DNA of 64,000 nt from NCBI GenBank assembly GCA_035288045.1, contig DATEBA010000005.1, positions 23,146 through 87,145 of the forward strand, written 5' to 3'. Within the stretch, counting starts at the first letter, position 1. The number at the start of each line of letters is the position of its first letter. The DNA is from Actinomycetota bacterium. GTDB taxonomy: Bacteria; Actinomycetota; UBA4738; HRBIN12. Shown in pieces: positions 34,355 through 52,553 of this stretch. The notes beneath the pieces were generated by a model. It did no database searches. It was not told the origin of the DNA and saw nothing but the letters and a program-made list of their open reading frames with translations. The position numbers and the translations under genes were made by a program.

Positions 34355-34373
34355 GCCACTCGCTCCTCATCGA

Positions 34374-34402: not shown

Positions 34403-34424
34403 GTAGGCCCGTCGGTTCCCGAGC

Positions 34425-35756: not shown

Positions 35757-35770
35757 GCCCCCTCCTTCAT

Positions 35771-35786
35771 TTGAGCGCCGATTCAA
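35771..35786. promoter_or_regulatory. Operator-like 16-mer upstream of potD
   Basis: TTGAGCGCCGATTCAA, extending to TTTGA...TCAAA, 14 nt from the potD start codon. Confidence 0.6.
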
Positions 35787-35951
35787 AGGGCTAGCTATCA
35801 CAGGCTAGGAGCCCGTGCAAGCCCACCGTCTTTGGATACGTGTGTCGGGGCCTCCGCGGTTGGCCCTCTGAGACCGGGGGTTGCGCCGTTGAACCACGCT
35901 TTTGACCCGCGTGTATCATGCAGCGGCCGCGAGCCACCGGAGGAATCCCCT

Positions 35952-36782
35952 ATGAGCGAGCAGGAAGGGCCCGTACTCCTGGTCGAGGACATCGGACCGG
36001 TACGCCGGCTCACGATGAATCGCCCCAAGTCCCTGAACGCCCTCAACGCCGAGCTCATGGAAGCCATGTCCCGAGCCCTGGCCGAGGCCGCCCGGGACGA
36101 CTCGGTGACCGTCCTCGTCTTGCGCGGCGCCGGGCGCGCGTTCTGCGCCGGCTACGACCTCACAGAGGACGCCGGTTCGGGGGCTATGGACTCCGCCGCC
36201 TGGGAGCGCGAGCTCCGGCACTCGACCGAGGCGATGCTCGAGTTCCTCGATCATCCGAAGCCGACGATCGCGCAGGTCCACAGCTACTGTCTCGCCGGCG
36301 GCACCGACCTCATGCTCGCGTGCGACCTCGCGGTTGCGGCGGACGACTCCTACTTCGGCTACGTCGACATCCGGTTCGGCTCCGGCGTCGTCTCGATGTT
36401 CCTGCCGTGGGTGGTCGGAGTGCGCAAGGCCAAGGAGCTGCTCTTCACGGGGGAGGACCGGATCCCGGCCGACGAGGCGCTCCGGATCGGCCTCGTGAAC
36501 CGCGTCGTGGCGCGCGACGATCTCGACGCGGCGACGCTGTCCCTCGCGGAGGAGATCGCCAAGAACGAGTCGTTCGTCGTGCAGATGTCCAAGCGCGCGG
36601 CGAACCGCGTGTGGGACGTCGCAGGGTTCCGGGCTGCGATGGACGCCAACACCGAGCTCGACACGATCATCGAGACGGCGAACCTTCCGCAGCGCGACGA
36701 GTTCCGGCGGATCACCCAGGAGGAGGGGCTCAAGGCGGCGATCGCGTGGCGAGACGCGCGCTACCGCGGCGGGAGCCCATGA
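35952..36782 (+). CDS. Enoyl-CoA hydratase/isomerase (crotonase) family protein
   Basis: MNRPKSLNAL, FCAGYDL, AGGTDL, GYVD, AKELLFTG, IGLVNRVV. Confidence 0.88.
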   Translation: MSEQEGPVLLVEDIGPVRRLTMNRPKSLNALNAELMEAMSRALAEAARDDSVTVLVLRGAGRAFCAGYDLTEDAGSGAMDSAAWERELRHSTEAMLEFLDHPKPTIAQVHSYCLAGGTDLMLACDLAVAADDSYFGYVDIRFGSGVVSMFLPWVVGVRKAKELLFTGEDRIPADEALRIGLVNRVVARDDLDAATLSLAEEIAKNESFVVQMSKRAANRVWDVAGFRAAMDANTELDTIIETANLPQRDEFRRITQEEGLKAAIAWRDARYRGGSP

Positions 36783-38872
36783 ACCTCGAGCCGCTCCTTG
36801 CTCCTCGATCCATCGCGATCATCGGTGCTTCGGAGAAACCAGACTCCTGGGCACCGGAGATCTATCGGAGCCTCATGCACCTCGGCTACGGCGGCGAGCT
36901 CTACCCGATCAACCCGAAGTACGAGGAGGTCTGGGGCAGACCCTGCCACGCTTCGATCCTGGAGGTTCCCGCGAAGGTCGACCTCGTTGTGGTCGTCGTC
37001 CCGGCGCGCGTGGCGGTGCGGATGGTCGACGACTGCGGCAGGGCCGGCGCGCGCGGCGTCATGGTCGTGTCGAGCGGCTTCGCCGAAGCCGGCGAGGAGG
37101 GGAGGGAGCTACAGGCTGAGCTCCGGGCGACTGCGATGAGGCACCGGCTCCCGGTTCTCGGGCCCAACGTCGAGGGGTTCGTGAACTACGTGGAGCGCGT
37201 GGCGCCATACGGAACGACGCCGCCCCCCGAGCCGGTCCCGGGCGGGATCAGCGTGATCTCGCAGAGCGGCACCGTTGCCTGGACGATGAACCAGATGGCG
37301 TCGGACCGGGGCGTGGGCCTCCGGATCATCCTCGGCGTGGGCAACGAGGCCGTGGTTGGCCTCGGCGATATGTTCGAGTGGGCGGCCGCCGACCGTCACA
37401 CGAAGATCGTCGCGAGCTACCTCGAGACGATGCGCGACGTCGAGGGCATGGGTCGCGGGCTGGATGCGCTCAGAAGGGCCGCCAAGCCGGTGCTGATCTG
37501 TGCTCCCGTTGGCCGGAGCGAGGCGGCGCGCCGCTCGATCGTCGCTCACACCGGCGCGCTGGCGGGGAACACCGGACTCCGCGACGCGTGGCTGCGCGGT
37601 TTGGGCGTGATCCTCGTGAACGACCCGGTGGAGATGTTCGAGGCGGCGGTGCTTCTGTCGTACCACCGCAAGCTCCGGGCCACCGGCGTCGCCGCGGCGC
37701 TGCAGTCGGGAGGCGCCTGCACGCTGTTCGCCGAGGCCGCGGGAGCGGCGGGGCTGGAGCTGCCCGAGTTCGCGACCTCGACCAAGCGCAAGCTGAGGAA
37801 GGCCCTGCCGCACTTCGCCAGCCAGAACAACCCGCTCGACGTGACCGGCCAGGCGGCCGTCGAGACCGACATGTACGTGGGTGCGCTCGAGGCTCTCGCG
37901 ACCGACCCGAAGGTCGGCTTCGTCGGCTTCGATGCGTTCCCGCCGCGCCTCGAGGACGAGGGCGTTTGGGCCGAGCCGGTGCTGAAGCGTGTCCGCGAGC
38001 TCCAGAAGGAGACCGGAGTCGTCTTTGCCTCGGTTGCGATGAGCTCGCTCTCCTACACGAGGGCGGCCAAGGACTTCGTGGACGATGCCGGGTTCCCATT
38101 CATCCAGGGGCACCGCGCGTCTGCCGGCGCGATCCGAGCGCTCGTCGAGCTGCAGGGGACGAAGGCGCGGGCGACGCGGCAGGTTCCGGCGCACGCGAAC
38201 CGCGGGAGGGCCATGCGTGTGCTGTCGGGGCTGTCTGGCACGCTCGACGAGGCCCAGGCGGCGAGGCTCCTCGAGCTCTACGGTGTGCCGCGGCCGGAGG
38301 AGCGGGTCGTCGATACCCCGGAGAGAGCTTCGGCCGCGGCACGCGCGATCGGCTTCCCCGTCGCGATCAAGGCGGTCGCGCCCGAGCTGCCGCACAAGGC
38401 GAAGCTCGGTGGGGTGCGGCTCGCGATCGGGTCCCCGGCCGACGCCGAGCTCGCGGCGGCCGATGTGTTTCGGATCGCGCGACACGCCGGCGCGCGGAGG
38501 CCGCAGGTGATTGTCCAGCGGATGGTCGACGGGGCCGAGATACTCCTCGGGGCGGTCGTCGACGAGCGGTTCGGGGCTTGCGTGACCATCCGGCCGGGCG
38601 GCGCGCTCGCGGAGGCCGGCGGGGCCACGTTCGTCCGCGCCCCGCTCACCGCCGCGCAGTCGCTCGCCTACGTCGACGAGCAGGGCGATCGCTGCCGGTT
38701 GGACCCGGCTCGCCACGACGTGCGGGCGGTCGCCAAGGCGGTCGAGGCGATCGCGCGGGCGGCGCACGACCTGCGCGGGCGGCTCGCATCGCTCGAGGCG
38801 AACCCGCTCATCGTGATGCACAAGGGGGCCGTTGCCGTGGACGCGTTAGCGGAAGCACGGCCGTCCGCGTGA
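36779..38872 (+). CDS. ADP-forming acyl-CoA synthetase (fused alpha-beta)
   Basis: SIAIIGAS, YPINPKY, SQSG, GNEA, phospho-His AHTGALAG, NNPLD, and ATP-grasp HKAKLGGV. The ATG overlaps the crotonase stop. Confidence 0.9.
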   Translation: MNLEPLLAPRSIAIIGASEKPDSWAPEIYRSLMHLGYGGELYPINPKYEEVWGRPCHASILEVPAKVDLVVVVVPARVAVRMVDDCGRAGARGVMVVSSGFAEAGEEGRELQAELRATAMRHRLPVLGPNVEGFVNYVERVAPYGTTPPPEPVPGGISVISQSGTVAWTMNQMASDRGVGLRIILGVGNEAVVGLGDMFEWAAADRHTKIVASYLETMRDVEGMGRGLDALRRAAKPVLICAPVGRSEAARRSIVAHTGALAGNTGLRDAWLRGLGVILVNDPVEMFEAAVLLSYHRKLRATGVAAALQSGGACTLFAEAAGAAGLELPEFATSTKRKLRKALPHFASQNNPLDVTGQAAVETDMYVGALEALATDPKVGFVGFDAFPPRLEDEGVWAEPVLKRVRELQKETGVVFASVAMSSLSYTRAAKDFVDDAGFPFIQGHRASAGAIRALVELQGTKARATRQVPAHANRGRAMRVLSGLSGTLDEAQAARLLELYGVPRPEERVVDTPERASAAARAIGFPVAIKAVAPELPHKAKLGGVRLAIGSPADAELAAADVFRIARHAGARRPQVIVQRMVDGAEILLGAVVDERFGACVTIRPGGALAEAGGATFVRAPLTAAQSLAYVDEQGDRCRLDPARHDVRAVAKAVEAIARAAHDLRGRLASLEANPLIVMHKGAVAVDALAEARPSA

Positions 38873-39720
38873 TCTACGGGCTCGCCGCGGCGCTGGGGTG
38901 GGGGTTCTCGGACTTCACCGCCGCCGTCGTCTCCCGGAGGATCGGCAGCTTCACCACGGTCGTTGTGTCGCAGGTCACCTCGGTCGTTCTGCTGCTCGGT
39001 CTGGTCGCGGTCGTCGGACCCTCGTTCGACGGGCTCGGTCCAGGGTCGCTCGGCCTGCTGGTGTTGAACGGGTTCCTGCTCGCCATCGCCTACGTGATCT
39101 TCTACCGGGCGCTTGCGATCGGACCCGTGGGCCTCGTGTCGCCGATCGTGGCTGCCTACGGGGGGGTCGCCGTGCCACTGGCGATCCTCCTGCTCGACGA
39201 GCGGCTCTCCACGCTCCGGTTGGTGGGCACCGCCGTCACCGTCTGCGGGGTCGTTCTCACCTCCACCGATGTCCGCAAGCTCTCGGGGGGGCGGCAGTGG
39301 AGCGGCACCGGGATCGCGTTCGGCCTCGGCTCGATGGTCCTGTTCGCGGTCGCGACGATCGTCATGGGCTACACCGTGCGGGAGACCGGATGGATGCAGA
39401 CGGTGGTCGTCTCGAGGAGCGTCACCGCCGCGCTGCTCGTCGGCGCGGCTTACCTCCGCCGCACCGGCGTTCGGTCGGCCGGGGTGACGGGTCTTGCCGG
39501 CGCCGCGTTCATCGGACTGGCCGACATCACGGGGGTGGGGTTCTACGCGCGCGGGGCGGAGGTTGGCCTCGTCTCGATCGTCGCCGCCGTTTCGGCGACC
39601 TTCATCCTGATCCCGGTGATCGGCGGCGTAGTGCTCCTCGGCGAGCGTCCCGCCCCGAACCAGTCGCTCGGCGTCGCGATGGTCCTCGCAGGCCTCGTTC
39701 TGATCGGCCTCGGGGGCTGA
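38869..39720 (+). CDS. EamA/DMT-family transporter
   Basis: About 10 hydrophobic segments, FYRALAIGPVGLVSPI, LLDERL, LLGERP...Q..G. Confidence 0.88.
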   Translation: MIYGLAAALGWGFSDFTAAVVSRRIGSFTTVVVSQVTSVVLLLGLVAVVGPSFDGLGPGSLGLLVLNGFLLAIAYVIFYRALAIGPVGLVSPIVAAYGGVAVPLAILLLDERLSTLRLVGTAVTVCGVVLTSTDVRKLSGGRQWSGTGIAFGLGSMVLFAVATIVMGYTVRETGWMQTVVVSRSVTAALLVGAAYLRRTGVRSAGVTGLAGAAFIGLADITGVGFYARGAEVGLVSIVAAVSATFILIPVIGGVVLLGERPAPNQSLGVAMVLAGLVLIGLGG

Positions 39721-39790: not shown

Positions 39791-40186
39791 GTGTCCAAAG
39801 CACCCGAAACCATCGGCGAGCTCATGACTAGGGATGTGGTGGCGGTTGCTCCGGCCGACACGGTGGAACGCGCGCTCCGGGCGATGATCGAGCGGGACAT
39901 CGGCTCCGTCGTCGTGGCAGAGGGCGGATCCGCGGTCGGGGTCTTCACAGAACGGGATCTCAGCCGCCGCGTGATAGACGACCCGGAGCTGCTGGGGAGA
40001 CCCGTGATCGCGGCGATGTCCTCTCCAGTCGTGTCGGTGGGTCCCGACACCGAGGTTGTGGACGCCTTCGAGCTCATGAACACAAACGGGATCCGTCGGC
40101 TGCCCGTCGTGGAGGACGGCCGTCTCGTAGGGATCGTGACCGAGCGCGACCTGTTGCGCTGGGTGGGCCAGGTGGCGAAGGAGTGA
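39791..40186 (+). CDS. Stand-alone CBS-pair protein
   Basis: IGELMTRDVV, IGSVVV, VGVFTERDL, GIRRLPVVEDGRLVGIVTERDL. GGAGGG precedes the GTG. Confidence 0.9.
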   Translation: MSKAPETIGELMTRDVVAVAPADTVERALRAMIERDIGSVVVAEGGSAVGVFTERDLSRRVIDDPELLGRPVIAAMSSPVVSVGPDTEVVDAFELMNTNGIRRLPVVEDGRLVGIVTERDLLRWVGQVAKE

Positions 40187-40190
40187 GGGC

Positions 40191-40940
40191 GTGAGCTCGG
40201 CCTCCTTCGATTCCGCGGTCGAGACGGTCCGCGCCGCCGCGGCGCGCGACGTGCCGCTTCGGCTCCTGGGCGGACAGGCGGTCCGGCTCCTTTGTCCGAA
40301 CTTCCCGCCTCGCGTGCGCGACGACCAGGACATGGACTTCGCATCGGTGTCGTCGGCGAAGGGGTCCGTGATGGAGTTCCTTTACGACCTCGGCTTCGTT
40401 GGTGACAAGCGCTTCAACACGATGCACGGGCACAAGCAGATGTACTTCACCTCCCCGGGAGGAGGCACGAGCGTGGACGTGGTCATGGATCAGCTGAACA
40501 TGTGCCACGTGCTCGACTTCAGGGACAGGATCGATCGGATGCCGTACACGCTTGACGTGACCGACCTCCTCCTGTCGAAGCTCCAGGTGGTCGAGCAGAA
40601 CGAGAAGGACGTCCAAGACATCGTCTACCTGCTCTGCGCCCACGAGGTGAGCGAAGGCGACGAGCCCGGCGCGGTCGGGCTCGCCCGGTTCGGGGAGGTC
40701 GTCGGTAACGACTGGGGATGGTGGCGAACCGTCACGGGCAACCTGGATCGGGTCGTCGAGCTGGCCGGCGGCGAGCTAAGCCGACTGGTGCCAGCCGGCG
40801 CCGCCCACGACCCCGTCGTGCAAGGCTCCGCCCTCCGCCGGTTCGCCTACGAGACGCCCAAGAGCCTCAGGTGGAAGATCCGTTCGAAGGTCGGGGAGCG
40901 CGTCCGCTGGTACGAGCTTCCCGAGGAGATAGCGCACTAG
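40191..40940 (+). CDS. Uncharacterised DNA polymerase-beta-superfamily nucleotidyltransferase
   Basis: LLGGQAV...RDDQDMDF (hGG...DhD) with a candidate third acid in VDV, then DLLLSKLQ...NEKD..DI. Confidence 0.72.
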   Translation: MSSASFDSAVETVRAAAARDVPLRLLGGQAVRLLCPNFPPRVRDDQDMDFASVSSAKGSVMEFLYDLGFVGDKRFNTMHGHKQMYFTSPGGGTSVDVVMDQLNMCHVLDFRDRIDRMPYTLDVTDLLLSKLQVVEQNEKDVQDIVYLLCAHEVSEGDEPGAVGLARFGEVVGNDWGWWRTVTGNLDRVVELAGGELSRLVPAGAAHDPVVQGSALRRFAYETPKSLRWKIRSKVGERVRWYELPEEIAH

Positions 40941-40947
40941 TAGCCCA

Positions 40948-42618
40948 CTAGACCCCCGCCTCCCGGCTCGGCCGGTGGCGGTAGAACTCGATCTCGGCCG
41001 GCGGCGGCGGCGTCTTGCCGAGGATCAGATCCGCCGCCTTCTCCGCGACCATCATCACGGGGGCGTAGATGTTGGCGTTGGTGATCGAGGGGAATACCGA
41101 AGCGTCCACGACCCGGAGGCCCTCGAAGCCGTGAACCTTCATGTTCGCCGGGTCGACGACCGACAGCTCGTCGACCCCCATCCTGCACGTGCACGACGGG
41201 TGCAGCGCGGTCTCGCCGTCTCGAGCAACCCATCCGAGGATCTGATCGTCGGTCTCGACGCCGGGTCCGGGCGAGAGCTCACCCCCGTTGAACTCGCCGA
41301 AGGAGCGCTGGTTCAGGATGCGGCGGACGATCCGGATCGCCTCCACCCACTCGCGCCGGTCCTTGTCGGTGGAGAGGTAGTTGAAGAGGAGGGCGGGGTG
41401 CACGGCCGGATCCGCCGACCGGATCTTCACCCATCCACGCGCGTCCGAGACCATCGGGCCGATGTGAACCTGGTATCCGTGGTCGCCGGCAGGCGCAGAG
41501 CCGTCGTAGCGAACCGCGATCGGCAGGAAGTGGAACATCAGGTTCGGCTCGTCGACCTCGTCGTTGCTTCGCGCGAAGCCGCCCCCCTCGAAGTGGTTGG
41601 TCGCCCCGGGGCCCCGCCTGAAGAAGAGCCACTGGAACCCGATCCAGGGCCTGTAGCGCCACTTCAGGTAGGGCGCCACGGAGACCGGCTTCGTGCAGGA
41701 GTACTGCACGTAGACCTCCAGGTGGTCCTGCAGGTTCTCGCCGACGCCCGGGAGGTGCTGCACGACGTCGATGCCGAGCGCCCGCAGCTCGTCGGCGTTC
41801 CCGACGCCGGAGACCTGGAGGAGCTGCGGGGAGTTGATCGCCCCGCCGCAGAGGATCACCTCGCCGGCCCGGATCCGCCGGGGCCGCTCCTTCCCCCGTG
41901 AGTACTCGACCCCGACGGCCCGGTTGCCCTCGAACAGGATCCTCGTCACGAACGCGCGCGTTCGCACCTCGAGGTTCGGCCGCCGCATCACCGGATGCAG
42001 GTACGCGCGGGCGGCCGACAGCCGCCTCCCGCGGTGCACGTTCCTGTCGAAGGGAGCGAACCCCTCCTGCCGGAACCCGTTCACGTCGTCGGTGAGGGTG
42101 AAGCCCGCCAGCTGCACGGCTTCGAAGAAGGCTCGGAACAGCGGATTGGTCGCGGGGCCGCGCTCGAGCACGAGAGGTCCGTCGTGGCCACGGAAGGGGT
42201 CGTCCTCGTTGGCGGCCAGGCAGTTCTCCATCCTCCGGAAGTACGGAAGGCAGTGCGCGTAGTCCCACGTCTGCGTCCCGGGGGCGCTAGCCCACCGCTC
42301 GTAGTCCATCGGGTTCCCCCGTTGGAAGATCATCCCGTTGATGCTGCTGGAGCCCCCCAGCACCTTGCCGCGGGCGTGATAGATCCTTCTGCCGTTCATG
42401 AACGGCTCGGGCTCGGACTCGTACTTCCAGTCGTAGAAGCGGCTCCCGATCGGGAAGGTGAGGGCCGCCGGCATGTGGATGAAGACGTCCCAGCTGTAGT
42501 CGGGCCTCCCGGCCTCTAGCACTAGGACCCGGTTGGACGGGTCGGCGGAGAGCCGGTTCGCCAGGACGCTACCGGCCGAGCCGCCCCCGACGATCACGAA
42601 GTCGTAGGGGTGTGCCAC
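40948..42618 (-). CDS. betA: Choline dehydrogenase (GMC oxidoreductase)
   Basis: [79 protein letters not shown]. The HPSCTCRMG ending is characteristic of BetA. Confidence 0.88.
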
Positions 42619-42653
42619 GGGTTCCACGGAACGAGCATGACACCCCGTCGGTG

Positions 42654-42684
42654 GGTGCGCAGCCCCCGTTGCGACCTGCGCACC
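42654..42684. promoter_or_regulatory. Inverted repeat plus IclR-type box in the betA/phosphoesterase divergent region
   Basis: GGTGCGCAG (42654-62) pairs with CTGCGCACC (42676-84). GTTGCG-ACCTG-CGCACC (42668-84) resembles the box at the iclR start. Confidence 0.45.
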
Positions 42685-42767
42685 TCTGGCGCTCCTGGCT
42701 TGCATAGGGACCCTGCGGCGAGGGACACTCGGAGGGCCCGCAGGCGAGCAGGGGGTCGCGGGAGGGC

Positions 42768-43712
42768 ATGCCCAAGATCTTCTACGTGACGGACATCCAC
42801 GGGTCCGAGATCTGCTGGATGAAGTTCCTGAACGCGGGGCCGTTCTACGGGGCCGATGTCGTGATCGTCGGCGGCGACATCACCGGCAAGGCCATGGTCC
42901 CGATCGTTGCCCGGAACGGCCGGTGGGAGACGACGCTCCAGGACCACCACGAGATCCTCGAGAGCGAGGCAGAGGTAGCCGAGATCGAGAAGAGGATCAT
43001 GAACCGCGGCTACTACCCGATCCGGGTTTCGGAGGAGGAGTACCGGGCTCTCCAGGAAGACGAGGATCTCGTCGACAAGCGCTTCAAGGAGGCGATGCTC
43101 GAGGGCACAGAGCGCTGGATCGGGATGGCGGAGGAGAAGTTCGCCGGCACGGGGATACGCCCGATCGCCTGCCCTGCCAACGACGACATGTTCGAGATCG
43201 ACGATGTCCTTGCCGGCGCGGACGTGGTCGAGACCGGCGACGAGGATCACCCGATCGAGCTCGACGGCTTTACGATCATCTCGATGGGTTGGACGAACCC
43301 GACGCCCTGGCACACGTTCCGGGAGGCGGAGGAGCCCGAGCTCGCCAGGCGGATCGCTCGCGCGCTGGAGCACGCGAGCGATCCGGAGACCACGATCATG
43401 AACCTCCATGCGCCGCCGTACGGCTCGCAGCTCGACAACGCGCCGGCGCTGAAGGACGACCTCACCTACGTCTCCGGCGGACAGGCGATCCGTCCGGTCG
43501 GCTCGACGTCGGTCCGCGATGCTATCCAGGAGTTCCAGCCCTTCCTGTCGCTGCACGGGCACATCCACGAGAGCAAGGGCGCCGCGCGGATCGGCAAGAC
43601 CCTCGCGCTAAACCCCGGGAGCTCCTACGAGGAGGGCGTGCTGCAATCAGCGGTGGTCGAGATCGACTCGAAGAAGCGGAAGGTGAAGAGCTATCAGCTG
43701 TTGACCGGCTAA
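42768..43712 (+). CDS. Calcineurin-like metallophosphoesterase (Icc-related, COG2129-like), copy 1
   Basis: TDIHG, GGDITGK, PANDD, HAPPY, LHGHIHE, NPGSSY. Confidence 0.85.
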
Positions 43713-43828
43713 CCGGGTAGGGCGCGATCGAACGGAGGTGATGTTCGAGACATGAACGATCGGAGGGACGGAGGCGAAGGGGGCTCCCGTCCCGACTCGA
43801 CGTGGTTCGGTATTCGGGAGGGGGTGCC

Positions 43829-45478
43829 ATGGCAGCGGTAGGCGAAGCTCCTACCTTGTTCCTTCGGAAGGCGACGGGACTCGTCAAGGGCTGGTCCCGG
43901 TTCGACGCCTTCCTCTACTCATTCATGTCGATCAACCTCGTGACCCTCGGCATGTTCTTCAGCCTTGCTGTGCTCGGCTACGCTCCCGGCGGCAACGTGC
44001 TATCCGCGATCGTGATCTCAGGGATCTTCGTGACGTTCCTCGTGATCACGTACGCGGGTCTGATCTCCGTCATGCCAAGGGCCGGCGGCGACTACGTGTG
44101 GCAGAGCCGGGTGCTCGGGGGCGGGATCGCGTTCGTGCTCGCGGTCACGGGTTGGTGGTTCATCCTTTGGTACTGGGCGCCGATCTACGGGGCCATCCTG
44201 AACGTCCAGGTTCTCCAGCCGATCGCCGCGCTGTTCAAGTTCGACGGGCTGCTCGAGTTCCTGGGGAAGGACAACGGCATATTCGCCGTCTGCATCTTGA
44301 CCGTGGCGCTTGCCGGGTACCTGGTGTCCCTCGGCATGGAGGGCTACGCGAGGGTCCAGAAGTTCTGCTTCTACCTCGCGATGGCGGGTCTGGCCGTGAT
44401 GCTCCTCGTCATGCTGTTCGGATCGCGGGAGGGCTTCCAGAGCGCCTTCAACCAGGAATCGGCGAACCTCTTCGGCACCAGCGGGGACACCTACGGGGCA
44501 ACCGTCGATCTGGCCGGAGGCAGCGCCGCACTTCCGCCGGATCTGGGGTTCTCGCCGCTCTTCGGCGACAGCCTGCTCCTCATCCCCTTCCTCGCGTTCT
44601 GGATCCTGTGGCCGAACTGGGGCGCGACCCTCTACGGAGAGGTCAGGGGAGCCGGAGACTTCAAGCGCGTGACCAGCGGAATGATGTGGGGGCTCTGGGT
44701 CACCATCGTCCTCGCGGTCGTCTTCCTGGCGCTGGCCTCGAAGTTCTTCGGCTGGGACTTCTTCAACGCCGGCAACGTGAACTTCATCAACTACTACTAC
44801 GGGTTCACGACCGACGTGACGATTCCCGTGTGGACGTACCCGCCGCTCCTTGTCGGGATGTTCTTCCACAACTCGTTCCTCGCGGCGATCCTCGTCCTGG
44901 TCTTCGGCGCGTGGTTCGTCGGCTGGGCGGGGACGCTGTTCCTGTCGTCCACGCGGGTGATCTTTGCGGCCGCGTTCGACCGTATCCTGCCGGAGCGTGT
45001 TGCTGACGTGTCCGAGAAGCGACACGTTCCCGTGTGGGCGTTGGTGTTGATGCTCGTGCCCGCAGTGGCGGTCAGCGCCCTGTACGCCTACTTCCACACG
45101 TTCAGGACGTGGGTGCTAGACGCGACCCTCGTGATCGCGGTGACCTTCTTCGGCACGGCCATCGCCGCCACGATCCTGCCCTGGCGCAAGAAGGCGCTCT
45201 ACGAGAGCTCGCCGATCGCGAGGTACAAGGTGGCGGGGATCCCTCTCATCACGATCTCCGGAGCGATCACGGCCCTGTTCCTGGGGTGGAACCTGTACAA
45301 GTGGATGTGGCCGCCCGCTTCGGAGGGCAACCTGTACGGGATCAACAACCTCGACTCCTTGAAGTTCATGGGGGCGATGTACCTCCTCGCGGTCGTCGTC
45401 TACGTGGTCGCGAAGGTGTATCGGAAGAGCCAGGGGATCGACCTGGGAGCGATCCACAAGGAGATCCCGGTCGAGTAG
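43829..45478 (+). CDS. APC-family amino acid/amine permease
   Basis: FLRKATGLV, MPRAGGDYVWQSR, YGEV, R.IFAAAFDRILP, about 14 hydrophobic segments, C-terminal KEIPVE. Confidence 0.9.
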   Translation: MAAVGEAPTLFLRKATGLVKGWSRFDAFLYSFMSINLVTLGMFFSLAVLGYAPGGNVLSAIVISGIFVTFLVITYAGLISVMPRAGGDYVWQSRVLGGGIAFVLAVTGWWFILWYWAPIYGAILNVQVLQPIAALFKFDGLLEFLGKDNGIFAVCILTVALAGYLVSLGMEGYARVQKFCFYLAMAGLAVMLLVMLFGSREGFQSAFNQESANLFGTSGDTYGATVDLAGGSAALPPDLGFSPLFGDSLLLIPFLAFWILWPNWGATLYGEVRGAGDFKRVTSGMMWGLWVTIVLAVVFLALASKFFGWDFFNAGNVNFINYYYGFTTDVTIPVWTYPPLLVGMFFHNSFLAAILVLVFGAWFVGWAGTLFLSSTRVIFAAAFDRILPERVADVSEKRHVPVWALVLMLVPAVAVSALYAYFHTFRTWVLDATLVIAVTFFGTAIAATILPWRKKALYESSPIARYKVAGIPLITISGAITALFLGWNLYKWMWPPASEGNLYGINNLDSLKFMGAMYLLAVVVYVVAKVYRKSQGIDLGAIHKEIPVE

Positions 45479-45496
45479 CCGGGATCGAGTTCGTTC

Positions 45497-45520
45497 GGGG
45501 GGCGGCGAGCGCCGCCCCCC
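45497..45520 (+). terminator. Intercistronic hairpin after the APC permease
   Basis: GGGGGGCGGC-gagc-GCCGCCCCCC, a perfect 10-bp stem. Confidence 0.6.
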
Positions 45521-45540
45521 ATCGTCCGTGAGGTGTTCGC

Positions 45541-46989
45541 ATGGCAGACGAGTACCGGATGTTCATAGGCGGCGAGTGGGTCGGCTCGGAGAGCGGGGCC
45601 GTGTTCGAGGCGACCAGTCCGTCCTCCGGCGAGGTGATCGGCACGGTGCCGGAGGGCACCCGCGCCGACGCGCAGCGAGCGATCGCGGCGGCCGGCGAGG
45701 CGTGGCAGGGGTGGGGCGCGCTGTCGGCGTTCGATCGCGCGGCCAAGCTACGGCGGATGGCCGAGATCGCCGCCGAGCGCCGAGAGGACCTCGCCCACAC
45801 GCTGGCGCTCGACCAGGGCAAGCCGCTACGGGCGGAGGCTCACGACGAGGTTGAGGAGCTGATCTCCTACTTCGAGATGGCCGCCGAGGACGCGACGCGG
45901 CTGGACGGCGTGATCCCGCCGTCGGTGGACCGGAGCAAGCGGGTGCTCCTCCAGCGGGTGCCGCGAGGGGTCGTCGCGGCGATCAGCCCTTGGAACTGGC
46001 CGTACACGATGCCGGCGGAAATCGTGGCGCCGGCGCTCGCCTACGGCAACGCCGTTGTGTGGGTGCCCGCGCCGACGACCTCGGTGTGCGCCGTGAAGCT
46101 CGCGGAGGTGGTCGCCGAGGCCGATGTGCCACCCGGGGTCTTCAACATGGTGACCGGTCCCGGGCCGGTCGTCGGCGACGAGATCGCGGCCCACCCCGAG
46201 ACGCATGCGGTCGGGTTCATCGGCTCCATCGCGACCGGACGGTCGGTGGCGCAGCGTGCCGCGGGCAAGGAGCTGCTGCTCGAGATGGGTGGCAATGGGC
46301 CGCTCGTGATCATGGAGGACGCCGACCTCGACGCGGCCGTTCGCGGGACGCTTTCCGCGTGCTTCCTCAACGCGGGTCAGAGCTGCACCGCCGGGGAGCG
46401 GATCCTCGTGCACGAGGACGTGCACGACGACTACCTCGAGCGTCTCGCGGACGCGGTCGGTCGGGGGATCAGGCTCGGCGACCCCTTCGACGACCGGACC
46501 ACGATGGGCCCGCTCAACAACCCCGGTGTCGCCGACAAGACCGAGCGGCATGTGGGCGAGGCCTCGGAGCGCGGCGCAAGGGTGCAGCTCGGCGGGCGTC
46601 GCTCGCCCGAGCTCGGCTCGGACCTGTTCTTCGAGGCGACGATCGTCGACGAGGTGACCGACGAGATGGAGATCGCCCGCGAGGAGACGTTCGGACCGGT
46701 CGCGCCGGTCTCCAGGATCCGGAGCGAGGACGAGGCGATCCGCCTGGTGAACTCGTCGCCCTACGGGCTCCTCTCCGCGATCTTCACCCGTGATCTCCGG
46801 CGGGGTCTGCGCTACGCCGAGGCCGTGCGAGCCGGATGGGTGAACGTGAACGAGGGCACGAACTACTGGGAGTCGCATCTTCCCTTCGGCGGCCGGGCGG
46901 GCTCGATGAGCGGCGTCGGTCGCGTCGGCGGCCGGTACTCGATGGAGCGTCTGACGGAGCTCAAGACCGTCGTCGTCGACGTGTCTTGA
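45541..46989 (+). CDS. Aldehyde dehydrogenase (GabD-like family)
   Basis: SPWNWP, FIGSIATG, LEMGGNGP, catalytic AGQSCTAG, EETFGPV, PFGG. Confidence 0.92.
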   Translation: MADEYRMFIGGEWVGSESGAVFEATSPSSGEVIGTVPEGTRADAQRAIAAAGEAWQGWGALSAFDRAAKLRRMAEIAAERREDLAHTLALDQGKPLRAEAHDEVEELISYFEMAAEDATRLDGVIPPSVDRSKRVLLQRVPRGVVAAISPWNWPYTMPAEIVAPALAYGNAVVWVPAPTTSVCAVKLAEVVAEADVPPGVFNMVTGPGPVVGDEIAAHPETHAVGFIGSIATGRSVAQRAAGKELLLEMGGNGPLVIMEDADLDAAVRGTLSACFLNAGQSCTAGERILVHEDVHDDYLERLADAVGRGIRLGDPFDDRTTMGPLNNPGVADKTERHVGEASERGARVQLGGRRSPELGSDLFFEATIVDEVTDEMEIAREETFGPVAPVSRIRSEDEAIRLVNSSPYGLLSAIFTRDLRRGLRYAEAVRAGWVNVNEGTNYWESHLPFGGRAGSMSGVGRVGGRYSMERLTELKTVVVDVS

Positions 46990-47004
46990 GGCAAGGAAGG
47001 TCGC

Positions 47005-47988
47005 GTGCGACGAGCGCGTGACGGTCGCACAACGCGGCTCTTCTACGCCGCGGACCTCCACGGCTCGGAGCCCACCTTCCGGAAGCTCGTGAACGCCGCG
47101 GCCTTCTACGACGCCGATGCCCTCGTGTTCGGGGGCGACCTCATGGGTAAGGTGCTCGTGCCGATCGTCCGCTGGGGAGGGACCTTCCGGGCTCGTTTCC
47201 TCGGGGCGGATCACGAGCTCGACGCGGACGGGCTCGCCCCATTCGTCGGGAGCCTGGAGACGACGGGCTTCTACTGGAAGGTGATGAACCCCGACGAATA
47301 CGAGGAGGTCAAGTCCGATCCGCTCGCGCAGCGGACGCTCTTCTGCGAGCTGGCCGGCGAGCGCCTGGCGTCCTGGCTCTCGCTGGCGGAGGACCGGCTC
47401 GCGGGTACCGGCGTGCGGCTGTACCTCACCGGCGGCAACGACGACGAGCCTGCGGTCCTCGAGGTGCTCGAGCGCCACGATGGCCGGGTCGCGATCGCGT
47501 CCGAGGGGCGAGTGGTGCAGGTCGACGGGGACCACACGATGATCACCGTCGGGTTGTCGACACCCACGCCGTGGGACACCCCGAGGGAGGCAGGCGAGGA
47601 CGTGATCGCCGAGGCGATCGAATCTGCGGGCGCCCGGGTGCCGGACCCCGGGCGCTGCGTCTTCAACCTGCACTGCCCGCCGAAGGACACGCCGCTCGAC
47701 ACCTGCCTTGAGCTGGAGCGCTCACCGGGCGAGCTGCCACGTCCGGTCCGTCGGGGCGGACGGTTCGTCACGACCGGCGGCGGCAGCGCCGCCGTGCGAA
47801 GAGCGATCGAGTCCTACCAGCCGCTGGTGGGTCTCCACGGCCACGTCCACGAGTCGCCCGGGCGCTTCCGGATCGGCCGAACCCAGTGCTTCAACCCCGG
47901 TAGCGAGTACGCCCAGGGCATCCTGCAGGGCGTGCTCGTCTCGCTTCGGTCCGGTGCCGTCACCGGATACCAGCACACCTCGGGGTAG
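47005..47988 (+). CDS. Calcineurin-like metallophosphoesterase (Icc-related, COG2129-like), copy 2
   Basis: ADLHG, GGDLMGK, GGNDD, HCPP, LHGHVHE, NPGSEY. Clear paralog of 42768-43712. Confidence 0.85.
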   Translation: MRRARDGRTTRLFYAADLHGSEPTFRKLVNAAAFYDADALVFGGDLMGKVLVPIVRWGGTFRARFLGADHELDADGLAPFVGSLETTGFYWKVMNPDEYEEVKSDPLAQRTLFCELAGERLASWLSLAEDRLAGTGVRLYLTGGNDDEPAVLEVLERHDGRVAIASEGRVVQVDGDHTMITVGLSTPTPWDTPREAGEDVIAEAIESAGARVPDPGRCVFNLHCPPKDTPLDTCLELERSPGELPRPVRRGGRFVTTGGGSAAVRRAIESYQPLVGLHGHVHESPGRFRIGRTQCFNPGSEYAQGILQGVLVSLRSGAVTGYQHTSG

Positions 47989-47995
47989 GCGAGCG

Positions 47996-48067
47996 TTGAC
48001 GCCCGGCGCGGCGCGGGAGTAGGGTCGCCGTTGCGACATGGCCATTAGCGTTGCGTGATGCGAAACG
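47996..48067 (+). promoter_or_regulatory. Promoter and palindromic operator of the iclR operon
   Basis: TTGACG (47996-48001), 18 nt, TAGGGT (48020-25). The palindrome CGTTGCG-TGATG-CGAAACG (48049-67) covers the start codon. Confidence 0.6.
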
Positions 48068-48843
48068 TAGAGCGAAGCGGCGTCCAGTCGGTCGCCCGCG
48101 CGCTGGCGATCCTTGAGGAGCTCGCGGGCGGCGAGCTGGGCGTCACCGAGCTGGGGCGCCGACTGGGTGTCCACAAGGCAACCGCCTCGCGGCTGGTCGC
48201 GACCCTGGCGGATCGAGGGCTCGTGGAACGCGATCCCTCGACCGACAAGTTCCGCTTGGGGTTCGGCCTGATCCACCTCGCCGGCGCCGCGATGGCGGGA
48301 CTCGATCTCGTTCACGAGGCGCACCCCGTGCTGGAGGACCTCGCCGAGCGAACGCGGGAGACCGTGAACCTCGCAGTGCGCGACGGCGACAGCGTGATGC
48401 ACGTCGACCAGATCGCCGGAACGCGCTCGGTCGTGTCGGTGTCCTGGGTCGGCCGTCGCACGCCCTACCACTGCACCTCGAACGGCAAGGTGCTGCTCGC
48501 GTTCCTCGGTGACGCCGAGCGCGCCCGGCTGCTCGCCGCGCCGCTCGAGCGCAGGACGGCGAACACGATCGTGGACCCCGACGCGCTCCGGGCTCAGCTC
48601 GCGGAGGTCGCCACCCGCGGGTACGCGTTCACCGTCGAGGAGCTCGAGGAAGGCCTGAATGCCGTCGCGGCGCCAATCCGGGGCGCCGCTGGCGAGGTGG
48701 TGGCGGCCGTCAGCGTGTCGGGGCCCGCGTTCCGGTTCCTGCGGTCGGACATCGAGCGGGTCGGGCGGATCGTCATGGACGCGGCGGGCGCGATCTCACG
48801 CCGGATGGGGTACGTGGAGAGGAGGCAGTCCGTTGGAGGTTGA
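48058..48843 (+). CDS. IclR-family transcriptional regulator
   Basis: VQSVARALAILE, LGVHKATASRLV.TL, ETVNL, HCTSNGKVLLA, RGYA...EE..EGL.AVAAPI, AAVSVSGP. Confidence 0.93.
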   Translation: MRNVERSGVQSVARALAILEELAGGELGVTELGRRLGVHKATASRLVATLADRGLVERDPSTDKFRLGFGLIHLAGAAMAGLDLVHEAHPVLEDLAERTRETVNLAVRDGDSVMHVDQIAGTRSVVSVSWVGRRTPYHCTSNGKVLLAFLGDAERARLLAAPLERRTANTIVDPDALRAQLAEVATRGYAFTVEELEEGLNAVAAPIRGAAGEVVAAVSVSGPAFRFLRSDIERVGRIVMDAAGAISRRMGYVERRQSVGG

Positions 48844-50002
48844 GGAGAACCCCGGGATCCTGCTGTACACGAGGATCCGCAAGTCGCCGTACTTCTACGC
48901 CTCGCGCAAGCACGGCGTGAAGCGCTACAGCGTCTACAACCACACCTATCACCCCCGGCACTACGGCGACCCGGTCGAGGAGTACTGGAAGCTCGTGAAC
49001 GGCGTCACGCTGTGGGACGTCGGCGTCGAGAAGCAGATCCAGATCAAGGGGCCCGATGCCTTCGACCTGGCGAACACGATCGTGCCCCGCGACCTGCACA
49101 AGTGCGCGGTCGACCAGTGCAAGTACGTGTTCATCACGGCTCCCGACGGCGGGATCCTGAACGACCCGGTGCTGCTGCGCGTGGCCGAGGACGAGTTCTG
49201 GCTCTCGCTCGCTGACAGCGACGTCAACCTGTACGCGCTCGGCATCGGAGCCGCCCTGGGGATGAACGTCACGGTCGGCGAGATCGACGTCGCGCCGGTC
49301 CAGGTCCAAGGGCCGAACGCGAAGAAGGTGCTGGTCGAGCTGGTCGGCGACTCGATCCTCGAGGTGCCCTACTACGGCCTCATGAAGGCCGAGATCGACG
49401 GGATCCGCGTCGTGATCTCGCGCACCGGCTACACCGGCGAGGTCGGGTACGAGATCTACTGCCACAACGCGAGCGTCCACGGTGCGCGGCTCTGGGACCT
49501 AGTGCTGGAGGCCGGCCAGCCCCACGGTCTGGATGTGATCGGGCCGTGCCATATCCGCCGCATCGAGGGCGGCATCCTGGCCTTCGGAGCGGACATGTGG
49601 TACGAGAACAACCCCTTCGAGGTCGGCTATCACTACACGTGGATGGTCGACCTCGACCAGGAAGCCGACTTCATGGGGAAGGAAGCTCTGAGGCGCATCA
49701 AGGAAGAGGGCGTGAACCAGAAGCTCGTCGGCGTGGACATGGGGGGCGACCCCCTCGGGACCTACATCGACAACGAGATGATCGACTTCTTCCCCGTTCA
49801 CGCGGGCGGTCGCGAAGTCGGGCGGGTGACCTCGGCTTGCTTCTCGCCCCGCCTGGAGAAGAACATCGGGTTCGCGATGCTTCCGATCGAGCACGCCGAG
49901 CTCGGGAACGCGCTCGAGGTGGACGTTCCCTCAGGAAGGGTGGCTGCGACGGTCGTCCAGATGCCGCACTGGGATCCGACCAAGGAGATCCCCAAGCAGT
50001 AG
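48833..50002 (+). CDS. GcvT-family THF-dependent methyltransferase, DmdA-like clade
   Basis: TTG start 8 nt after GGAGG. RIRKSPY, VYNH, LWDVGVEKQ..IKGPDA, DGGILNDPVLL...W.SLADSD, SRTGYTGE.GYE, RIEGG, NNPFEVG, VTSACFSP. No gcvH or gcvP in the window. Confidence 0.82.
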   Translation: MEVEENPGILLYTRIRKSPYFYASRKHGVKRYSVYNHTYHPRHYGDPVEEYWKLVNGVTLWDVGVEKQIQIKGPDAFDLANTIVPRDLHKCAVDQCKYVFITAPDGGILNDPVLLRVAEDEFWLSLADSDVNLYALGIGAALGMNVTVGEIDVAPVQVQGPNAKKVLVELVGDSILEVPYYGLMKAEIDGIRVVISRTGYTGEVGYEIYCHNASVHGARLWDLVLEAGQPHGLDVIGPCHIRRIEGGILAFGADMWYENNPFEVGYHYTWMVDLDQEADFMGKEALRRIKEEGVNQKLVGVDMGGDPLGTYIDNEMIDFFPVHAGGREVGRVTSACFSPRLEKNIGFAMLPIEHAELGNALEVDVPSGRVAATVVQMPHWDPTKEIPKQ

Positions 50003-50032
50003 TCCTCGAGGAGCGCTCCGAAGGAGGCGGGG

Positions 50033-52552
50033 ATGAGCGATTTGCCGGAGCGGGCGAGCATCGTCGTGGTCGGCGCGGGGATCGTGGGAAACAGCATGGC
50101 CTACCACCTTGCGCTCCTCGGGTGGCGGGACATCGTGCTGGTGGACAAGGGCCCCCTGCCCAACCCGGGCGGGTCCACCGGTCACGCCTCGAACTTCATA
50201 TACCTCGTGGACCACTCCAAGGAGATGACGAGGTTCACCCTCGACAGCCTGGAGCAGTACCAGAAGCTCGGAGTCGCCACGATCTCGGGGGGGATCGAGG
50301 TGGCGCGCACGCCCGAGCGCATGGAGGAGCTCAAGCGACGCATCGCGTCGGCCAAGTCCTGGGGCATCGAGCCGGTGGAGCTGGTCACACCCTCCGAGGT
50401 CCGCGAGCTGGTTCCGTTCGTGGACGACAAGGTGATCCTCGGCGGCTTCTACACGCCGGGCGTCGCCGTCGTGGACTCTCTGCGCGCCGGAACCCTGATG
50501 CGCGAGCGAGCGCAGGAGATGGGCGCGCTCACGGTCTCGGCCTCGACTGAGGTCACCGGGATCGACGTCGCCGACGGGCGGATCGGTCGCGTCCGGACCG
50601 ACAGGGGCGACGTCCAGACGGAGACGATCGTCGTCTGCTGCGGCATCTGGAGCCCGCGTATCGCCCGGATGGCCGGCGCCTCGATCCCGCTCACGCCGGC
50701 GGTGCACCAGATGATCGACGTCGGACCGGTGCCGCTCTTCGAGGGAACCGTCGGCGAGATCGAGTACCCGATCGTCCGCGACGTCGATACGAACATGTAC
50801 GAGCGCCAGCACGGCAGCGAGCTCGAGATCGGCTCCTACGCGCACCGGCCGATCCTCTGGGAGCCCGACGACATCCCATCGATCGAGCAGTCCGCGCTTT
50901 CCCCGACCGAGCAGCCGTTCACGAAGGGCGACTTCGATCCGCAGCTCGAGGACGCGCTCGAGCTGATGCCGGAGATCCTGGGCGACGAGCGGGTCGGCGT
51001 GAAGTACGCGATCAATGGGCTCCTCTCGCTCACCCCGGACGGGATGCCGTGCCTGGGTGAGACGCCGGAGGTTCAGGGTCTGTGGTCGGCCGCGGCGATC
51101 TGGATCAAGGAGGCGCCCGGGATAGCCAAGTGCATCGGGCAGTGGATGACCGACGGGACCCCCGAGATCGACCCGCACGCGTCGGACGTCGCGCGCTTCT
51201 ACCCGCACCACCGGACCAGGAAGCACGTCAAGGAGCGCTGCGCCGAGGGCTACAACAAGACCTACGGCATCGTGCACCCGATGGAGCAGTGGAGCTCGAA
51301 CCGCAACGTCCGGCTCACGCCTTTCAACGAGCGGGAGCGAGCGCTCGACGCGGTGTTCTATGAGGCGGCCGGCTGGGAGCGCCCACACTGGTACGGGTCA
51401 AACGCGGCTCTGCTCGAGGAGTACGGCGACCGCGTGATGCCCCGGGAGGCCGAGTGGGAGTCTCGGTGGTGGTCGCCGATCGTGAACGCGGAGCACCTCG
51501 CGATGCGCGAGCGTGTGGGGCTCGTCGACCTCTCGGCGTTCGCGATCTTCGACGTGACCGGTCCCGGGGCGCTCGGGTACCTCGAGGGGTTGGTCGTCAA
51601 GCAGATCGGCGTGCCAGTGGGGCGCGTCGTCTACACGCCCTTGCTCAACGCGGCCGGCGGCGTGAAGGCCGACCTCACGATCATGCGCCTTTCATCGAAC
51701 GAGTTCCGCGTGGTGACCGGCGGTTTCTCCGGGATGTTCGACAAGAAGTGGTTCGTCGACCATCTCCCGGACGATGGCTCGGCGCAGCTGTTCGACGCGA
51801 CCTCCGCGTGGTGCACGGCCGGTGTCTGGGGGCCGAGCGCGCGCGACCTGGTCGCCTCGGTGACCGAGGACGACGTCTCCGGCAAGGGGTTCCCGTTCGC
51901 GACCTGCCGCCGCATCACGATCGACACGCTCGGGGTGCTCGCCTCCCGGATCTCGTACGTGGGCGAGCTTGGATGGGAGCTCCACGTGCCGATGGAGCAG
52001 GGCGCCAGCCTCTGGGACGTGCTCTGGGAGGCCGGGCGGCCGCTCGGAGTCGTGCCGGTCGGGATCGGCGTGTACGCGACGACCGCCCGCCTCGAGAAGA
52101 GCTACCGCGCGCACGGCAACGAGCTGGAGCTCGAGTACGACCTGGTCGAGGCGGGCATGGCGGGTCCGTCGCTCAAGGACGAGGACTTCGTCGGGCGCGA
52201 GGCGTACCTGAAGCAACGGGCCGGCGATCCGGCCGCGCTTCTCTGCACGCTCACGGTCGACGACCACACGTCCTCTTCCGGCGTGAAGCGATACATGATG
52301 GGCCGCGAGCCGATTCTCTTGCCCGACGGCGACCCGATCGTGGACGCGAAGGGCAGGCGGTCATACGTCACGAGCGCCGGCTCTGGGCCGTCGCTCGGCA
52401 AGCATCTGCTGATGGCCTACCTGCCTCCGGAGCGCGCGAAGGAAGGCGAGCGCCTCGCCGTCGAGTACTTCGGCGAGCGGTACCCGGTGACCGTGGCCGT
52501 GGTCGGCGCACGGCCGCTGTTCGACCCCGAGAACGAGCGGATGAAGCGCTGA
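50033..52552 (+). CDS. Dimethylglycine/sarcosine dehydrogenase-like flavoprotein (DAO domain + GcvT domain)
   Basis: VVVGAGIVG, PGGSTGHA, AINGLLSLTPDG, GWERP.WY, SYVGELGWE, RLEKSY, YVTSAGSG, FDPENERMK. Followed directly by ETF genes. Confidence 0.88.
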   Translation: MSDLPERASIVVVGAGIVGNSMAYHLALLGWRDIVLVDKGPLPNPGGSTGHASNFIYLVDHSKEMTRFTLDSLEQYQKLGVATISGGIEVARTPERMEELKRRIASAKSWGIEPVELVTPSEVRELVPFVDDKVILGGFYTPGVAVVDSLRAGTLMRERAQEMGALTVSASTEVTGIDVADGRIGRVRTDRGDVQTETIVVCCGIWSPRIARMAGASIPLTPAVHQMIDVGPVPLFEGTVGEIEYPIVRDVDTNMYERQHGSELEIGSYAHRPILWEPDDIPSIEQSALSPTEQPFTKGDFDPQLEDALELMPEILGDERVGVKYAINGLLSLTPDGMPCLGETPEVQGLWSAAAIWIKEAPGIAKCIGQWMTDGTPEIDPHASDVARFYPHHRTRKHVKERCAEGYNKTYGIVHPMEQWSSNRNVRLTPFNERERALDAVFYEAAGWERPHWYGSNAALLEEYGDRVMPREAEWESRWWSPIVNAEHLAMRERVGLVDLSAFAIFDVTGPGALGYLEGLVVKQIGVPVGRVVYTPLLNAAGGVKADLTIMRLSSNEFRVVTGGFSGMFDKKWFVDHLPDDGSAQLFDATSAWCTAGVWGPSARDLVASVTEDDVSGKGFPFATCRRITIDTLGVLASRISYVGELGWELHVPMEQGASLWDVLWEAGRPLGVVPVGIGVYATTARLEKSYRAHGNELELEYDLVEAGMAGPSLKDEDFVGREAYLKQRAGDPAALLCTLTVDDHTSSSGVKRYMMGREPILLPDGDPIVDAKGRRSYVTSAGSGPSLGKHLLMAYLPPERAKEGERLAVEYFGERYPVTVAVVGARPLFDPENERMKR

Positions 52553-52553
52553 C

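Follow-up and report, generated by a model that had tools for sequence, protein, structure and literature searches.

The 64,000-nucleotide stretch of Actinomycetota DNA analysed here (the window; contig DATEBA010000005.1, positions 23,146 to 87,145) contains, within an island of choline-type catabolic genes, a gene for a nucleotidyltransferase-fold protein (NTase) that lies close to genes for a metallophosphoesterase (MPE1) and a divergent APC-superfamily permease. Because homologs of these three genes occur as a set in Actinomycetota, in Chloroflexota, and in at least one archaeon, the NTase, the metallophosphoesterase (MPE), and the APC permease are almost certainly functionally linked. The gene arrangement in the window is as a first-pass annotation had described it: a stand-alone CBS pair, the NTase gene 4 nt downstream, an antisense betA, MPE1, the APC permease, an aldehyde dehydrogenase (ALDH), and a second metallophosphoesterase, MPE2 (Table 1). 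Coding frames were assigned by frame analysis of GC content at third codon positions (GC3), with one frame per stretch; the window has a GC content of 66-72%, and the frames of all seven of these genes have coding-type GC3 values of 0.80-0.91.

Table 1. Genes and intergenic features around the NTase gene (positions in the window)
Feature	Position	Strand	Basis
Enoyl-CoA hydratase	35832-36782	+	Pfam match
NDP-forming acyl-CoA synthetase	36779-38872	+	Pfam match
EamA transporter	38869-39720	+	Pfam match
Stand-alone CBS pair, 131 aa from GTG	39791-40186	+	PF00571, 112 bits, two domains
NTase-fold protein, 249 aa, module core	40191-40940	+	AlphaFold fold; no Pfam/NCBIfam match
Choline dehydrogenase, betA	40948-42705	-	TIGR01810, 844.6 bits vs cut-off 732.1
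Divergent betA/MPE1 intergenic region, 62 nt	42706-42767	.	start codons
MPE1, long COG2129-type metallophosphoesterase, 314 aa	42768-43712	+	motifs, fold
Divergent APC-superfamily permease, 558 aa	43802-45478	+	PF00324, PF13520
Aldehyde dehydrogenase (ALDH)	45541-46989	+	PF00171, 501 bits
MPE2, MPE1 paralogue	47005-47988	+	same intact motifs
Downstream catabolic genes: IclR, DmdA-like GcvT, dimethylglycine dehydrogenase-like flavoprotein, electron transfer flavoprotein beta	48055-53306	+	

Conservation of the three-gene neighbourhood

Two sets of loci were compared. The genome set, with one genome per species, holds 80 loci that come mostly from uncultured Actinomycetota and include one Limnocylindrales, and the metagenome set, seeded on a relative 33% identical to the window NTase, holds 80 loci with GC contents of 0.45-0.74; neighbours were counted with family hidden Markov models run on six-frame translations. 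Among loci with at least 3 kb on each side of the NTase gene, both an MPE gene and an APC permease gene lie within 3 kb of it in 46/51 genome loci and 12/15 metagenome loci (and the permease gene, counted by itself, in 48/51 genome loci), which bears out the co-occurrence of NTase homologs with a phosphoesterase and a permease that the first-pass annotation had suggested. Where at least 1.3 kb is available on both sides, the MPE gene is the direct neighbour of the NTase gene in 50/65 genome loci and 21/34 metagenome loci; the gap between the two genes has a median length of 44 nt and does not exceed 3 nt in a quarter of cases. Six gene orders and orientations occur, including NTase-MPE-APC (33 loci) and APC-MPE-NTase (12 loci). 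The insertion of betA between the NTase gene and MPE1, as in the window, is a minority arrangement also found at loci L010, L017, and L033; most related loci have betA upstream of the NTase gene and an uninterrupted run of NTase, MPE1, and APC permease genes. The association of the NTase with the MPE and the APC permease is far beyond chance.

Actinomycetota with the module include a Marmoricola (Nocardioidaceae) metagenome-assembled genome. The trio extends to Chloroflexota, where its carriers are the Limnocylindrales locus (L068) and clusters from Anaerolineae and Ktedonobacteraceae, and to one archaeal contig (L170, with Rio2, LSM, NucS, and archaeal S-adenosylmethionine synthase genes as neighbours), which carries APC, NTase, and MPE genes plus two enolase-superfamily genes. 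The first-pass annotation had placed the trio in thermoacidophilic archaea and Chloroflexi, which was right only in part: the trio is present in Chloroflexota and at L170, but the two thermoacidophilic or hyperthermophilic crenarchaea examined, Metallosphaera cuprina and Caldivirga, have a lone NTase. Three points count against the explanation of the module that we favour below. The lone NTase genes of these two crenarchaea sit among unrelated, largely housekeeping genes; loci L167 and L169 carry an NTase-MPE pair without an APC permease nearby; and shared phylogeny is a confounder of the mirror-tree distance correlations (r = 0.93 for MPE-APC, 0.72 for NTase-MPE, and 0.64 for NTase-APC).

Some of the deviating loci have features of their own. 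The crenarchaeal NTases (L164:8001-8762 in the cultured Metallosphaera cuprina, CP002656; L165 in Caldivirga) retain intact catalytic motifs, and within 8 kb of them there is neither an MPE nor an APC gene. At L167 (4688-9261), PhoU-like and PHO4 phosphate-transporter genes stand in divergent orientation to an NTase-RidA-MPE cluster, although this link to phosphate metabolism is a single, anecdotal case. At L050 (10001-13005), L051, L057, and L059, a PF04199 'putative cyclase' family metal-hydrolase stands in place of the MPE; in this variant the NTase gene overlaps the hydrolase gene by 8 nt, and a convergent APC permease gene follows.

Folds and conserved residues of the encoded proteins

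The NTase reaches no curated family cut-off, and Pfam, NCBIfam, and PADLOC searches with it gave no match. Its homologs form at least 4583 clusters at 90% identity, none of which has a functional name (for the closest, 68-86% identical, each listed source name is 'hypothetical protein'), and 1876 clusters among 50%-identity representatives. The AlphaFold model has a mean predicted local distance difference test (pLDDT) score of 90.3 and a predicted TM-score of 0.88 (elements H3-18, E24-26, H28-34, and E48-52), and its significant Foldseek matches, all of them weak (best E-value 8e-4), are all to NTase-fold proteins: MenT1 at the top, JHP933, LnuA, Cid1, MenT3, and ANT(2'')-Ia. When a profile of 27 diverse family members was searched against PDB sequences, the best matches were ANT(2'')-Ia and LnuA (E 0.03-0.5), in an alignment that spans the N-terminal helix, the GG-A motif, and the R..DxD motif. 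The protein contains the motif LLGGQAV...DQDMDF, and its D47xD49 aligns to the D-I-D of ANT(2'')-Ia. D47, D49, and D96 are invariant in 122/122 family sequences and G27-G28 is kept in 121 of them, while N76, H106, K130, Q132, D143, W175, K224, R231, G235, W240, and Y241 are invariant or nearly so. The model, the fold matches, the profile alignment, and the invariant residues together confirm the Pol-beta-type fold and the catalytic triad (D47/D49/D96) that the first-pass annotation had proposed. By its predicted structure, with the alpha-beta-alpha-beta-alpha-beta core, the hG[GS] motif, and [DE]x[DE] plus a third carboxylate on an adjoining strand, the NTase belongs to the Pol-beta superfamily, with a predicted nucleotidyl-transfer activity, and judging from these residues it is probably catalytically competent.

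The characterised proteins that it most resembles are ANT(2'')-Ia (AadB) and LnuA, which give the best target-normalised TM-scores (0.51-0.58) and share the N-terminal helix, hGG-A, R..D-h-D, and a third Asp on the next strand. Unlike these resistance proteins of 160-185 aa, the NTase has 249 aa, an overall identity to them below 20%, a catabolic context, and a unique conserved helical C-terminal domain (DWGWWRT, PKSLRWKxR, WYELPEE). The family also shares a branch of the NTase fold with AbiEii/MenT proteins (DUF1814), to which the top Foldseek match belongs, and with PF14907. The window NTase itself has no match to PF14907 (NTP_transf_5) at E <= 0.01 (gathering cut-off 31.2 bits); sub-threshold matches occur in 20 of the 27 relatives (best E 5e-8; 26.1 bits for P0163), six of the 27 match PF10706, and two match PF08843 (AbiEii) weakly. 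Unlike AbiEii/MenT systems, the NTase family has no adjacent antitoxin and is 60-75% conserved in metabolic operons. A toxin-antitoxin or defence role of the MenT/AbiEii kind was rejected on these grounds of neighbourhood, metabolic operons, and high conservation, and on the lack of a PADLOC match to the NTase; in the window the neighbours of the NTase gene are CBS, EamA, MPE, and APC genes.

The C-terminal WYxxPEE tail of the NTase is kept across choline, sugar, polyamine, and archaeal contexts. In the window this tail (W-Y-E-L-P-E-E, residues 240-249, 40908-40940) is predicted to be disordered (pLDDT <50); it might serve for docking or, through Tyr241, for auto-modification. Natural fusions join the NTase domain to a type-I phosphoribosyltransferase (P0251) or to a MarR-type helix-turn-helix domain (P0258); among 150 representatives, NTase-MPE and NTase-CBS fusions were sought and none was found, the only fusions being of these two kinds.

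MPE1 and MPE2 are members of the calcineurin-like metallophosphoesterase superfamily. Both score below the PF14582 Metallophos_3 cut-off of 28.2 bits (23.4 bits for MPE1 and 19.0 for MPE2), and many MPE1 homologs that are about 80% identical have precomputed PF14582 matches and the name COG2129; homologs 77-82% identical are named 'Icc-related predicted phosphoesterase'. Within the superfamily motifs DxH, GD, GN[HD], H, and GHxH, the ligands D9, H11, D37, N138, H214, H265, and H267 each recur in 123-125 of 125 sequences, with Asp139 taking the place of the motif III His. Both paralogues, which are 38% identical and have no signal peptide, keep all metal ligands. In fold comparison, the MPE1 model (pLDDT 82.6) matches TT1561 (1UF3) and aq_1956 (2YVT) best, with E-values of 2e-11 and 6e-9, followed by MPPED2 and 5'-nucleotidases; a PDB sequence search with MPE1 gave nothing significant. 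It shares metal-binding motifs with these two COG2129 proteins, which are themselves uncharacterised, but MPE1 and MPE2 are longer by about 60-90 aa, and MPE1 carries an extra insertion of about 80 residues (residues ~43-125, a beta-hairpin and helix region). MPE2-like genes never adjoin the NTase gene and are placed after the ALDH or APC gene. Residues 159-301 of MPE1 partially match the PADLOC candidate defence protein PDC-S10 (42 bits), probably through generic MPE similarity.

The APC permease scores above the cut-offs of PF00324 (50.1 bits against 24.6) and PF13520 (42.7 against 27) and scores 28, 20, and 23 bits against the NCBIfam subfamilies ABT 2A0306, ACT 2A0304, and BcaP, whose cut-offs are 557-690. 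Its conserved motifs are the generic ones of APC proteins, with no added soluble domain, and a PDB sequence search with it gave nothing significant. The CBS protein, which the first-pass annotation had cast as a possible nucleotide 'reader' of the system, does lie 4 nt upstream of the NTase, but a CBS gene adjoins the NTase gene in only 7/79 genome loci and 2/54 metagenome loci and is thus a rare, lineage-specific accessory of the module. A reading of the protein as a c-di-AMP-related CbpB is unsupported, with 19.5 bits against the NF041630 (CbpB/DarB) cut-off of 125. A 4xCBS protein adjoins the NTase at L130, L131, and L139, in a lineage with GC of 0.49-0.50, and was recruited independently of the CBS pair in the window.

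Catabolic context and transcription units

In the window the trio has been recruited into, and is split by, an island for the conversion of choline to betaine aldehyde, glycine betaine, and dimethylglycine. BetA scores above the TIGR01810 equivalog cut-off; the module ALDH scores 388 bits against the betaine-aldehyde dehydrogenase model TIGR01804, below the cut-off of 668.6, and by its context is the probable enzyme of the betaine-aldehyde step. Throughout the clade of the window, the trio is embedded with betA, ALDH, MPE2, and genes for dimethylglycine dehydrogenase-like (DMGDH-like), DmdA-like, and electron transfer flavoprotein (ETF) proteins. In many loci an ALDH gene follows the APC gene, at times with an iron-containing alcohol dehydrogenase (Fe-ADH), the enzyme family of GbsB. 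Neighbours in distant metagenome loci include ALDH, Fe-ADH, DMGDH-like proteins of 800-840 aa, a GcvT-family protein of 403 aa, and proteins like methylenetetrahydrofolate reductase (MTHFR), as well as MttB-family methyltransferases, choline-kinase-like and OpuAC-type binding proteins, ETF alpha and beta, and GntR. Other subclades have genes for histone deacetylase-like proteins and arylamine N-acetyltransferase, or Pot-type ABC transporters; for FGGY kinase, BtpA, and AP-endonuclease-2-fold proteins; or for enolase-superfamily proteins and short-chain dehydrogenases/reductases, and the contexts outside choline and betaine are of polyamine- or sugar-type catabolism. From the recurrent neighbours and the genes of these other subclades, the module is tied preferentially, but not exclusively, to choline/betaine catabolism.

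The GcvT-family protein downstream (from 48659, or from a TTG at 48833, to 50002, plus strand) has DmdA as its best match (321 bits, below the cut-off of 410); the TTG is the likelier start since the ATG at 48659 would make the gene overlap IclR by 185 nt. The DmdA-like gene, a neighbour of the DMGDH-like gene, shows 81-86% conservation across related loci and is followed in metagenome loci by an MTHFR-like gene; its product is a candidate tetrahydrofolate-dependent glycine-betaine demethylase. A second ALDH gene (28636-30084, plus strand) scores 554 bits against TIGR01804, above the score of the module ALDH, and lies beside a PotABCD-like ABC transporter (31303-35801), with which it possibly forms a free choline or polyamine route of the same island. 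The enoyl-CoA hydratase, acyl-CoA synthetase, and EamA genes (35832-39720) recur upstream of the NTase in many related genomes, and we raise a carnitine- or crotonobetaine-like role for them purely as a query. The nearby EamA transporter and, in some loci, a choline-kinase-like gene prompted us to consider phosphocholine decoration of the lic type (LicB/LicA/LicC/LicD); this reading was set aside, as no LicD or LicC family match was found and the context is catabolic.

The gene positions indicate two transcription units. Overlaps of 4 nt link the enoyl-CoA hydratase, acyl-CoA synthetase, and EamA genes, a gap of 70 nt separates EamA from the CBS gene (counted from the GTG at 39791), and 4 nt separate the CBS stop from the NTase gene, so these five genes would form one unit; a GGGAGGG Shine-Dalgarno sequence lies 5' of the CBS start and AAGGAG 5' of the NTase start. 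MPE1, APC, ALDH, and MPE2 would form a separate unit that diverges from betA over a spacer of 62 nt, presumed to be a shared control region. No sigma-70-like match was found in this spacer, and a promoter and terminator scan gave matches at the level expected by chance. An Rfam scan of the whole window (1-64000) gave no family at its gathering score, and thus no riboswitch ahead of the transport genes.

Candidate functions of the module

A full-text literature search found no description of an NTase-MPE-APC module. The superfamilies of its parts are known, but the APC clade has no name and the nearest relatives of the MPE are uncharacterised structural-genomics proteins; we classify the module as an NTase and phosphohydrolase pair coupled to a transporter and a catabolic operon. 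Several known systems resemble it in part. In GlnD-GlnK-AmtB, an NTase-fold writer, a metal-dependent phosphohydrolase, and a membrane importer are likewise encoded together, but GlnD has its HD domain in the same chain and acts on PII, whereas the hydrolase here is a separate MPE and no PII-like gene is present; the likeness is one of analogy only. HEPN-MNT pairs, in which a minimal NTase AMPylates the neighbouring hydrolase, share a small NTase gene translationally coupled to a hydrolase gene; in the present module an MPE or PF04199 hydrolase takes the place of the HEPN RNase, in catabolic rather than toxin-antitoxin surroundings. As in BetIBA and GbsAB, a bona fide BetA and an ALDH (and, in other loci, Fe-ADH) give the same two oxidations, but the known bet and gbs loci have, to our knowledge, BCCT or ABC importers and no NTase or MPE genes.

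Several explanations could account for the association. The first-pass annotation had offered two, a writer/eraser/reader nucleotide switch and a scavenging route for an imported amine such as phosphocholine, and either is conceivable. The genes might be neighbours merely by inheritance or hitch-hiking, with each acting independently; most loci do come from related uncultured soil Actinomycetota, and the NTase can occur alone, but the linkage survives six gene orders, a GC range of 0.45-0.74, three phyla in two domains, and unrelated flanking genes, and we regard this explanation as very improbable. A strict writer and eraser pair, in which a nucleotide placed by the NTase on the permease or on another protein is taken off by the MPE, with the CBS protein as the reader that senses nucleotides, would resemble GlnD/GlnK/AmtB or further NTase and phosphohydrolase pairs such as SpoT or the CCA-adding enzyme with its HD domain. 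Such a pair would fit the tight and often translational coupling of NTase and MPE genes, the intact catalytic motifs of both proteins, the occurrence of the module in differing catabolic contexts, the Tyr in the invariant flexible tail of the NTase, and the independent recruitment of CBS proteins in two distant lineages. Yet the MPE2 paralogue comes without a second NTase, an amidohydrolase-type protein of PF04199 replaces the MPE in four loci, co-variation of the MPE is stronger with the APC permease than with the NTase, and fewer than 10% of loci have the CBS gene, all of which make this scheme, in its strict form, unlikely. The paralogue, the replacement, and the tighter co-variation argue that the MPE is not simply the eraser of the NTase.

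The partners could instead act on small molecules. The NTase may O-nucleotidylate an imported amino-alcohol or cation, much as ANT(2'')-Ia and LnuA modify aminoglycosides and lincosamides, and the MPE may cleave the resulting phosphodiester, as a step of trapping, activation, or detoxification. ANT(2'')-Ia and LnuA, the best profile matches and the best by TM-score, point this way, as do the PF10706 matches among NTase relatives, the catabolic operons, and the nearest characterised folds of the MPE, which are nucleotide phosphodiesterases (MPPED2, 5'-nucleotidases, SapH). A context-specific nutrient acceptor would not be expected to leave acceptor-side residues invariant across contexts, and no known pathway needs such a step, whose net reaction wastes ATP; we consider it rather less probable than the writer and eraser pair. 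Lower still in our estimation, and quite improbable, is a messenger system in which the NTase makes a signalling nucleotide and the MPE degrades it, with control of the permease or of regulators and CBS proteins as readers. The NTase fold is common, as is generally known, to cGAS/DncV-type and RelA-type synthetases, Icc-type and MPPED2-type MPEs are cyclic-nucleotide phosphodiesterases, and both the fusions of the NTase with phosphoribosyltransferase and helix-turn-helix domains and the occasional adjacency of CBS proteins would suit signalling, but neither the fold nor the profile searches show likeness to a known cyclase or CD-NTase, the score of the CBS protein is far under the CbpB cut-off, and no dedicated effector domain is present.

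Building on the observed gene identities, folds, intact catalytic residues, and cross-phylum linkage, we tentatively favour a hybrid of these schemes, as the likeliest of several individually uncertain readings. In it, uptake of an organocation or its phosphoester through the permease would be followed by hydrolysis by the MPEs, and the NTase would attach a nucleotide to a partner that stays the same from context to context. Three observations lead to this preference. NTase residues outside the catalytic core are invariant in all contexts and in both domains of life, suggesting that the acceptor is the same in every context and is probably a partner protein or a universal molecule, and not a context-specific nutrient. 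The MPE, by contrast, behaves more like a substrate-linked hydrolase, given its strong correlation with the APC permease, the extra MPE2, and the PF04199 swap. In addition, NTases and phosphohydrolases recur as pairs of opposing activities, as in GlnD, SpoT, and the CCA-adding enzyme.

The substrates, the direction of regulation, and the protein-protein contacts of the hybrid scheme are all ones that we infer. The APC permease would import an organocation that feeds the island, either choline or, more likely, a zwitterionic phosphoester of the phosphocholine or glycerophosphocholine type. Cytoplasmic MPE1, joined in choline islands by MPE2, would hydrolyse the imported ester and free the alcohol for BetA and ALDH. 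Using an NTP, the NTase may nucleotidylate a hydroxyl of its partner, with the permease, the MPE, and the NTase itself as candidates, and this modification would gate uptake or hydrolysis, with the CBS pair, where present, perhaps adding adenine-nucleotide sensing. Some considerations count against this scheme. We know of no APC permease that carries phosphocholine, an import of free choline would leave the BetA/ALDH route with no need of an NTase or a phosphoesterase, and the nearest characterised relatives of the NTase modify small molecules (ANT(2''), LnuA) or tRNA (MenT), with none that modifies proteins. The more general proposal that the trio is a transporter-coupled nucleotidylation system of bacteria and archaea, in which the NTase covalently marks the APC importer or the partner hydrolase and thereby gates organocation uptake and release, is possible but doubtful, and we hold it with less confidence than the hybrid scheme.

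The NTase is linked almost obligately to one particular MPE and one particular APC clade, a sign that a step or a control point is missing from the account of choline-type compound uptake and degradation by abundant uncultured soil Actinomycetota and Chloroflexota. Compounds of this type are significant sources of carbon and nitrogen, and possibly of phosphorus. An understanding of the module would give thousands of genes an annotation, and it could reveal a new entry route for choline phosphoesters or a new regulation of APC transporters. If true, transporter-coupled nucleotidylation would be a new regulatory principle for secondary transporters.

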